DNA from: Zootoca vivipara
Taxonomy: Eukaryota
Reading direction: 5' to 3'
Assembly (NCBI RefSeq): GCF_963506605.1
Contig: NC_083282.1
Location: forward strand, 85,684,001 to 85,748,000
Length of the DNA: 64,000 bases
Under the pieces are notes generated by a model, which was given only the letters and a program-made list of their open reading frames with translations, searched no databases and was not told the origin of the DNA. Made by a program: the position numbers and the translations under genes. Of the stretch, positions 14,680-14,920 are shown piece by piece; the first letter of the stretch is position 1, and each line of letters starts with the position of its first letter.

Positions 14680-14920
14680 TCTCAACCCAGGATAGGTTTC
14701 TGGTGTTACTCCAAACAAGCTTTGAGCTGTAAACCCCACCCCACCCTCCCACTATATATAAGGGTCTAGTGACTTCTGTTTCAGTGTATCTGAAGAAGTG
14801 TGCATGCACACGAAAGCTTATACCAAGAACAAACTTAGTTGGTCTCTAAGGTGCAACTGGACTATTTATTTTATTTTATTTTGACTCTGTCATACCAACA
14901 CGGCTACCGACCTGAATCTG
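14680..14920 (+). mobile_element. Penelope-like element (PLE) terminal repeat (pseudo-LTR) fragment
   Basis: TATATATAAGG, then a hammerhead motif, then TTAGTTGGTCTCTAAGGTGC and the CAACACGGCTACC end motif, as recalled for reptile Penelope/Neptune termini. The left boundary is approximate. Confidence 0.75.
14779..14830 (+). ncRNA. Minimal type I hammerhead ribozyme motif
   Basis: Stem I GTAT (14786-89)/ATAC (14820-23); core CTGAAGA (14790-96) plus one extra A; stem II palindrome GTGTGCATGCACAC (14798-14811); GAAA (14812-15); palindromic AGCT as minimal stem III; cleavage site UH = UU ending at 14819. Confidence 0.75.

Follow-up and report, generated by a model that had tools for sequence, protein, structure and literature searches.

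The locus and its minimal hammerhead motif

The window, a stretch of 64,000 nt of the Zootoca vivipara genome (NC_083282.1, positions 85,684,001 to 85,748,000 of the forward strand), contains a minimal type I hammerhead motif at 14786-14823 of the plus strand, with the same letters as in an earlier sequence-only reading of this DNA. The motif lies in a remnant of a Penelope-like element (PLE), upstream of an exon of CDH4. The features, in window coordinates, are as follows.

14731-14919, maybe to about 14927, plus strand: 5'-truncated 3' end (pLTR and 'tail') of a Neptune-type Penelope-like retrotransposon, from repeat identity
14753-14762, plus strand: TATA-like box of the pLTR, TATATATAAG, from sequence; also in 29 subfamily copies
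14786-14789 with 14820-14823, plus strand: stem I, GTAT with ATAC, 4 bp, from sequence
14790-14796, plus strand: catalytic box CTGAAGA, from sequence
14797, plus strand: bulged A, from sequence
14798-14811, plus strand: stem II, GTGTG-CATG-CACAC (GTGTGCATGCACAC), a perfect 14-nt palindrome, 5 bp and a CAUG loop
14812-14815, plus strand: GAAA box, from sequence
14815-14818, plus strand: palindrome AGCT (AGCU), which gives a stem III only between two copies
14819, plus strand: N17, a U, in the triplet CUU; predicted cut between 14819 and 14820
14863-14919, plus strand: T-rich tract, then AC-rich 'tail' of 30-45 bp; two classes of 3' end among 88 copies
50990-51213, plus strand: CDH4 exon 3 (cadherin prodomain, PF08758), which closes the stub-bearing intron and is in frame with exon 2

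The CUGANGA and GAAA boxes are intact and the cleavage site is of the UH type. Helix I is short (4 bp, within the 4-5 bp of the class), a bulge precedes helix II, the G10.1-C11.1 pair is present, positions 15.2/16.2 are palindromic, and there is no helix III, as in the minimal hammerheads that Cervera and De la Pena described in 2014 in the pLTRs of metazoan Penelope-like elements (PMC4209133). The earlier claim of an intact minimal hammerhead is thus borne out, as boxes, stems, palindromic stem II and AGCT are all present, and the predicted cut after 14819 and the numbering are correct by sequence. The suggested extension of stem I by TTC/GAA is not favoured: its pairing probability is at most 0.10 even in a 71-nt fold, which prefers GUUU/GAAC in a register moved by one base. 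A descriptor of the minimal hammerhead has one match in the real window versus none in 300 dinucleotide-preserving resamples. With E values up to 10 allowed, an Rfam search of 13000-17000 matched none of the hammerhead families and gave only 4 weak, unrelated hits; this silence is expected, because the motif is without helix III.

Hammerheads with U17 are slower than those with C17. The NUH rule permits U at position 17 (PMC3138052), and no cleavage rate for CUU was found in the parts of the hammerhead literature consulted. Upstream, TATATAAG (14755) precedes stem I by 31 nt, counted to its first base. The young element has TACATAAG at an identical spacing to stem I; the TATA-like box may serve as a promoter of the pLTR. 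A pyrimidine tract followed by CAG abuts stem I (14773-14784) and might act within CDH4 intron 2 as a cryptic 3' splice site. This CAG of the window copy's subfamily corresponds to CAC in the young element, which bears on a possible spliceosomal intron in the pLTR like that of Drosophila Penelope.

The host intron

The product of exon 50990-51213 is 92% identical to a protein named Cadherin-4, and further CDH4 exons follow downstream on the plus strand. Exon 2 is found at C7:85311751-85311862, with correct AG/GT borders, about 387 kb upstream of the motif. Since exon 2 lies upstream, and exon 3 and later exons downstream, all on the plus strand, the hammerhead is in sense orientation in the roughly 423-kb intron 2, and its claimed sense location inside a CDH4 intron is confirmed.

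C7:85290001-85748000 was scanned in 10-kb pieces, so that copies spanning piece borders may be missed. The scan found seven exact cores in intron 2, 4 in sense and 3 in antisense orientation, with a total of 6.0 expected from the genome density. The sense count (4 observed versus 3.0 expected, P(>=4)=0.36) comes from one gene with 7 cores, too few for mild purging to show. Counting remnants of any length, there are 7 in sense and 8 in antisense orientation. The other three sense cores, all of the CUC form and upstream of the window copy at distances of 54, 176 and 334 kb, show that it is not the 'single copy' it had been taken for. With one copy in the window and the nearest sense copy 54 kb off, the locus is unlike non-LTR retrozymes, which have two or more consecutive tandem hammerhead units (preprint 10.64898/2026.07.22.740005).

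The parent retrotransposon

The remnant is a stub of about 190 bp. In a genome search with the stub, the best 40 of 2,549 candidates were scored, and the 39 other copies among them are 88-93% identical to it over query positions 30-40 to 214-226. Identity to the pLTR of a young full-length element (L068) is 81% (149/183). The copies have a common 3' end and a variable 5' extent. In many of them the T-rich tract forms a short 3' end, and the end of the AC-rich tail is the likely start of reverse transcription. Each end of the stub has the hexamer CTGTAA, which is ambiguous as a target-site duplication, because the tail of young-subfamily elements matches it too.

Among 29 copies of the window copy's subfamily, the longest two have about 530 bp of upstream sequence in common, which translates to a GIY-YIG domain. 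At longer loci, one frame encodes a reverse transcriptase (RT), a CxxxxCxxC linker and a GIY-YIG domain, and the hammerhead lies about 195 nt past the stop codon. An 855-aa frame (L041) matches RVT_1 with E=2.7e-12 and GIY-YIG with E=4.9e-5, features that belong to the parent family and are absent from the stub. The frames of L041 and L042 have the linker CNKPRCQLC and CQQC...H...H in the endonuclease. The origin of the motif in PLE terminal repeats, suggested in the sequence-only reading, is thus upheld by flanks that form a Penelope-like repeat leading into such a frame.

A CX2-5CxxC motif upstream of GIY-YIG together with CCHH is reported to mark Neptune and Nematis elements (Craig et al. 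2021, PMC8557442). The family resembles these EN+ PLEs in its single ORF with RT before GIY-YIG, in the CCHH and upstream CX2-5CxxC motifs, and in having partial tandems, pLTRs, inverted 5'-truncated partners and an optional tail of 30-40 bp. It would be of Neptune type by the linker motif, which is shared with Nematis. For vertebrates, a preprint reports Neptune and Poseidon only (10.64898/2026.07.22.740005).

The tandem units measure 3,030 bp, and the hammerhead lies between the stop codon of one and the start codon of the next, 132 nt before the ATG, which makes this region the pLTR. A search with the N-terminal 90 aa gave 292 candidates, of which 150 were scored; most of these are 97-100% identical, and many stand in open frames of 925 codons. 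The family is still young, as shown by dozens of such near-identical frames and by the 3,030-bp tandems, and looks currently active. No published description of this Zootoca family was found in a search that left Repbase/Dfam and subscription journals outside its scope, and supplement file 1 of PMC4209133 may list lizard motifs.

Besides the tandems, places of the young family with inverted partners were seen at L061-L084, L133 and L134. One locus (L135:826-2650) has four head-to-tail hammerhead units 598 bp apart, a retrozyme-like array derived from the 3' end of the young element.

Copy number and conservation

The genome contains 20,547 exact hammerhead cores, against 0 in the control. They are balanced between the strands (10,226/10,321) and amount to one per 70 kb. 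This exceeds the approximately 9,000 motifs reported for Xenopus and 4,000 for coelacanth (PMC4209133). The same report describes minimal hammerheads in fish Neptune, Poseidon and Xena elements, in turtle and in snakes, located in pLTRs and mostly dispersed as single motifs from truncated elements, as is the case here. In contrast to those motifs, the Zootoca helix II has 5 bp and is wholly palindromic, the copies are far more uniform, and the window copy has CUU. This triplet occurs in 614 of the 20,547 exact cores, and in 26 of the 29 copies of the window copy's subfamily. By sequence, the window copy is a member of an older subfamily with CUU.

Between the two subfamilies, 1 of 38 hammerhead positions differs, versus 33 of 145 elsewhere (Fisher p=0.004). 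Within the 29-copy subfamily, whose members are the best BLAST matches so that all divergence values are lowered, off-majority bases make up 2.5% of the hammerhead and 2.1% of the flanks (p=0.79 without the CpG). The catalytic G12 has been lost by CpG decay in 4 of the 29. The window copy has no change from the subfamily majority at the 38 hammerhead positions and 2 changes at 71 flanking positions, a difference that is not significant but gives no sign of decay either; its core is intact because all 38 bases are those of the majority. The core was kept between subfamilies and has decayed at the rate of the flanks after insertion, which argues for selection on the element, during transposition, and not detectably on the copies in the host. 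There is no covariation inside the family.

A search for motifs with other stems listed 60 matches, against 23 for the control. Among the 60 are further hammerhead-like families, one of which accounts for about 37 of the matches. Hammerhead-like repeats with other stems II were seen at L206, L208, L210, L211 and L215-L217; at L209 and L212; and at L214. The last has kept the downstream motif of the Neptune-type family, with stems I and II changed. Among 12 hammerhead-like loci with other stems, none has a PLE protein match within 1.5 kb.

The ends of the copies

The ends of 88 copies were surveyed. All come from a single contig, within its first 2.4 Mb, and they include inverted pairs that are not independent. 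With the cut site at +35, 25 of the 5' ends lie at or beyond about -133, 15 at -104..-8, 24 at -7..+8, 19 at +9..+33, 2 at +34..+36 and 3 later. Inversions that join within the stem II palindrome (equivalent to 14798-14811) account for many of the ends at +9..+33. The 5' ends thus cluster at the 5' edge of the hammerhead (24 of 88 at -7..+8, versus 15 over -104..-8, binomial p=1e-11), and no cluster is found at +35 among the 88 copies. Since few 5' ends lie at the cut site, the template of most copies appears to have been RNA with the complete motif, with the reservation that a circle that was cut and then religated would likewise leave no mark at +35. The copy ends provide genomic support for insertion from uncut RNA.

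One explanation of the cluster would be a transcription start on the opening base of stem I, for which the 31-nt distance to the TATA box is suitable. Stalling or template switching of the RT at the folded motif is as likely, because none of the 25 near-full-length copies begins at that base.

RNA reads and folding

Three raw RNA runs carrying the same species label were searched, about 6% of each being read; the libraries are fragmented and the reads come from many copies. On the young pLTR, 5,689, 2,484 and 3,332 reads were placed. Coverage is heaped on the stub region, and the loose ends among those listed gather at the first bases of stem I. The listed piles of read starts are at 637, 1164 and 1166 only, and none of the listed piles of starts or ends in the three runs falls on the cut site (1223/1224). 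This is weak evidence, because the libraries are fragmented. Stub sequence is plentiful in RNA, and 49-89% of the placed reads run on into unrelated flanks. At the ORF start of the full element the depth is 0-11 across the three runs, which indicates little full-length element RNA in them.

Folding predicts stem I to be open, with a pairing probability of 0.002-0.03 in contexts of 200-600 nt. When two copies are folded together, their stem II palindromes form a duplex of 14 bp (-31.2 kcal/mol, versus -12.9 for one active core).

Relation to known systems

The closest experimental parallel is PAc (Poseidon_Ac) of Anolis carolinensis. Frangieh et al. 2024 (PMC11167929) report that its hammerhead cleaves only with protein and is dispensable for insertion, that no reads ended at its cut site, and that the main template is unprocessed RNA. 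The PAc protein cuts AT-rich DNA, and reverse transcription is initiated at an internal site of the RNA, 111-118 nt downstream of where stem II begins. The Zootoca family is likewise a lizard PLE whose pLTR bears a hammerhead; its AC-rich 3' end falls some 110-120 nt beyond the point where stem II begins, the tail of 30-45 bp is optional, the junctions are AT-rich, and uncut RNA appears to be the template. It differs from PAc, which is of the Poseidon clade and has an ORF from stem II, in the CX2-5CxxC linker and in a first in-frame ATG 132 nt after C3.

The hammerheads in introns of the amniote RECK and DTNB genes share a type I core, sense orientation and location in a host intron with the window motif (PMC6155905). 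They are canonical, have tertiary contacts and are conserved across species, whereas the window motif is repeat-borne, minimal and without helix III.

Interpretation

We consider it very likely (probability about 0.9) that the motif is the pLTR hammerhead of a Neptune-type PLE, left behind as a 190-bp stub, and that at this site it is a likely inert passenger that leaves the host pre-mRNA uncut. By analogy with PLE biology, the element protein would nick AT-rich DNA, and reverse transcription would begin inside the element's own RNA, some 100 nt downstream of the hammerhead. Copying would then run leftwards through the uncut hammerhead and halt early, in this case 55 nt upstream of stem I. A tandem or pLTR-ORF-pLTR transcript of the parent would carry two identical motifs on one RNA. 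Motifs spaced 3,030 nt apart, as seen in the genomic tandems, could dimerize through AGCU to give helix III, probably with the aid of the element's protein, and so process the element RNA. The isolated stub has no neighbouring partner and ends at the likely start of reverse transcription.

The sequence-only reading had proposed that RNA of a transposable element could direct the cutting of the host intron. A core count in line with the genome density, decay of the cores at the rate of the flanks and the predicted open stem I tell against this, and cutting of the host intron by the stub is unsupported. In one version, the copy cuts only when paired with a second hammerhead RNA, either a PLE transcript in trans or an intronic copy in cis. 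The three further sense copies in intron 2 would supply partners, and heterodimers of CUC and CUU forms are compatible in sequence, because AGCU and stem I are identical in both subfamilies. However, an active dimer would be held by 4-bp helices and would compete with the far more stable stem II duplex, and stem I hardly pairs in longer contexts. In vitro, single minimal hammerheads are reported not to cleave, and dimers and trimers to cleave at a low level (PMC4209133). The idea of a lone copy with trans RNA as its sole partner is not supported, in view of the other sense copies and the two-copy fold, and cutting through either kind of pairing is highly improbable. The depletion of tandem retrozymes from Xenopus introns, as reported in a preprint (10.64898/2026.07.22.740005), nevertheless suggests that paired motifs can matter to hosts.

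Alternatively, protein made by intact copies could bind the intronic stubs, switch the hammerhead on and cut CDH4 intron 2 along with thousands of other introns. Such a protein requirement is known from the anole (PMC11167929), the Zootoca family could make the protein from dozens of 925-codon frames that are nearly identical, and RNA with stub sequence is plentiful, most of it reading on into unrelated flanks. On the other hand, sense cores are not depleted in CDH4 intron 2, and there is little full-length element RNA in the three runs. In the anole element, which is of another clade, insertion required RNA reaching 172 nt beyond the beginning of stem II; the stub stops at about 122 nt, which by analogy would be too early. 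We regard this reading as very unlikely. The broader picture, in which an active Neptune seeded some 20,000 intact cores and its protein makes CDH4 and thousands of other pre-mRNAs conditional cleavage targets through their sense intronic copies, is improbable as well. A domesticated ribozyme in CDH4 splicing, like those of RECK and DTNB, could be invoked in view of the intact core, the sense strand, the giant intron and the precedent of conserved intronic hammerheads in amniotes (PMC6155905). It deserves almost no credence for a lineage-level repeat insertion that is 88-93% identical to many dispersed copies, has no helix III and shows no extra conservation in the 29-copy subfamily comparison.

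As it stands the motif is of little consequence: work of 2014 (PMC4209133) already covered both the occurrence of minimal hammerheads in the terminal repeats of Penelope elements and their spread in large numbers as single motifs. The stubs would matter greatly only if intronic ones were shown to be cut in vivo. The dozens of near-identical intact frames offer a ready substrate for the biochemistry of the Neptune clade, as the one element studied in vitro in the literature consulted belongs to the Poseidon clade (PMC11167929).

Other observations

A search with the CDH4 exon 2 peptide found 11 places. Ten of them lie outside the gene, and at the DNA level exon 2 is matched by 9 of the ten, which makes at least nine dispersed copies (L057:1472-1615, L059, L125-L130 and L132; gene exons at L086:8086-8117 and L087:1751-1862). 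In eight of these nine copies the match ends no more than 2 nt from the splice donor of intron 2 (423 kb), and in at least five exon 2 is preceded by the spliced-on 3' end of exon 1. They are 80-98% identical to the gene, and their flanks are unrelated, and repeat-like in L059, L126 and L128. In 6 of 8, the continuation past the donor has no sense match in the intron, and no link between these retrocopies and the hammerhead was seen. By sequence, CDH4 exons 1-2 appear to have been retroposed repeatedly over a long time, in a manner that resembles human chimeras of trans-spliced mRNA and LINE-1. In these, first exons that end at donors before long introns are fused to LINE-1, which has been ascribed to trans-splicing (10.1101/2025.02.02.635956).

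Within the window, 46301-46515 is an inverted pair with 92-96% identity to sequence upstream of the element in L067, and represents an unrelated short hairpin repeat. The stretches 4920-5200, 15170-15500, 31650-32320 and 39260-39840 are what we take to be 3' fragments of RTE/BovB-like elements and SINE-like repeats, kinds that are typical of squamates.
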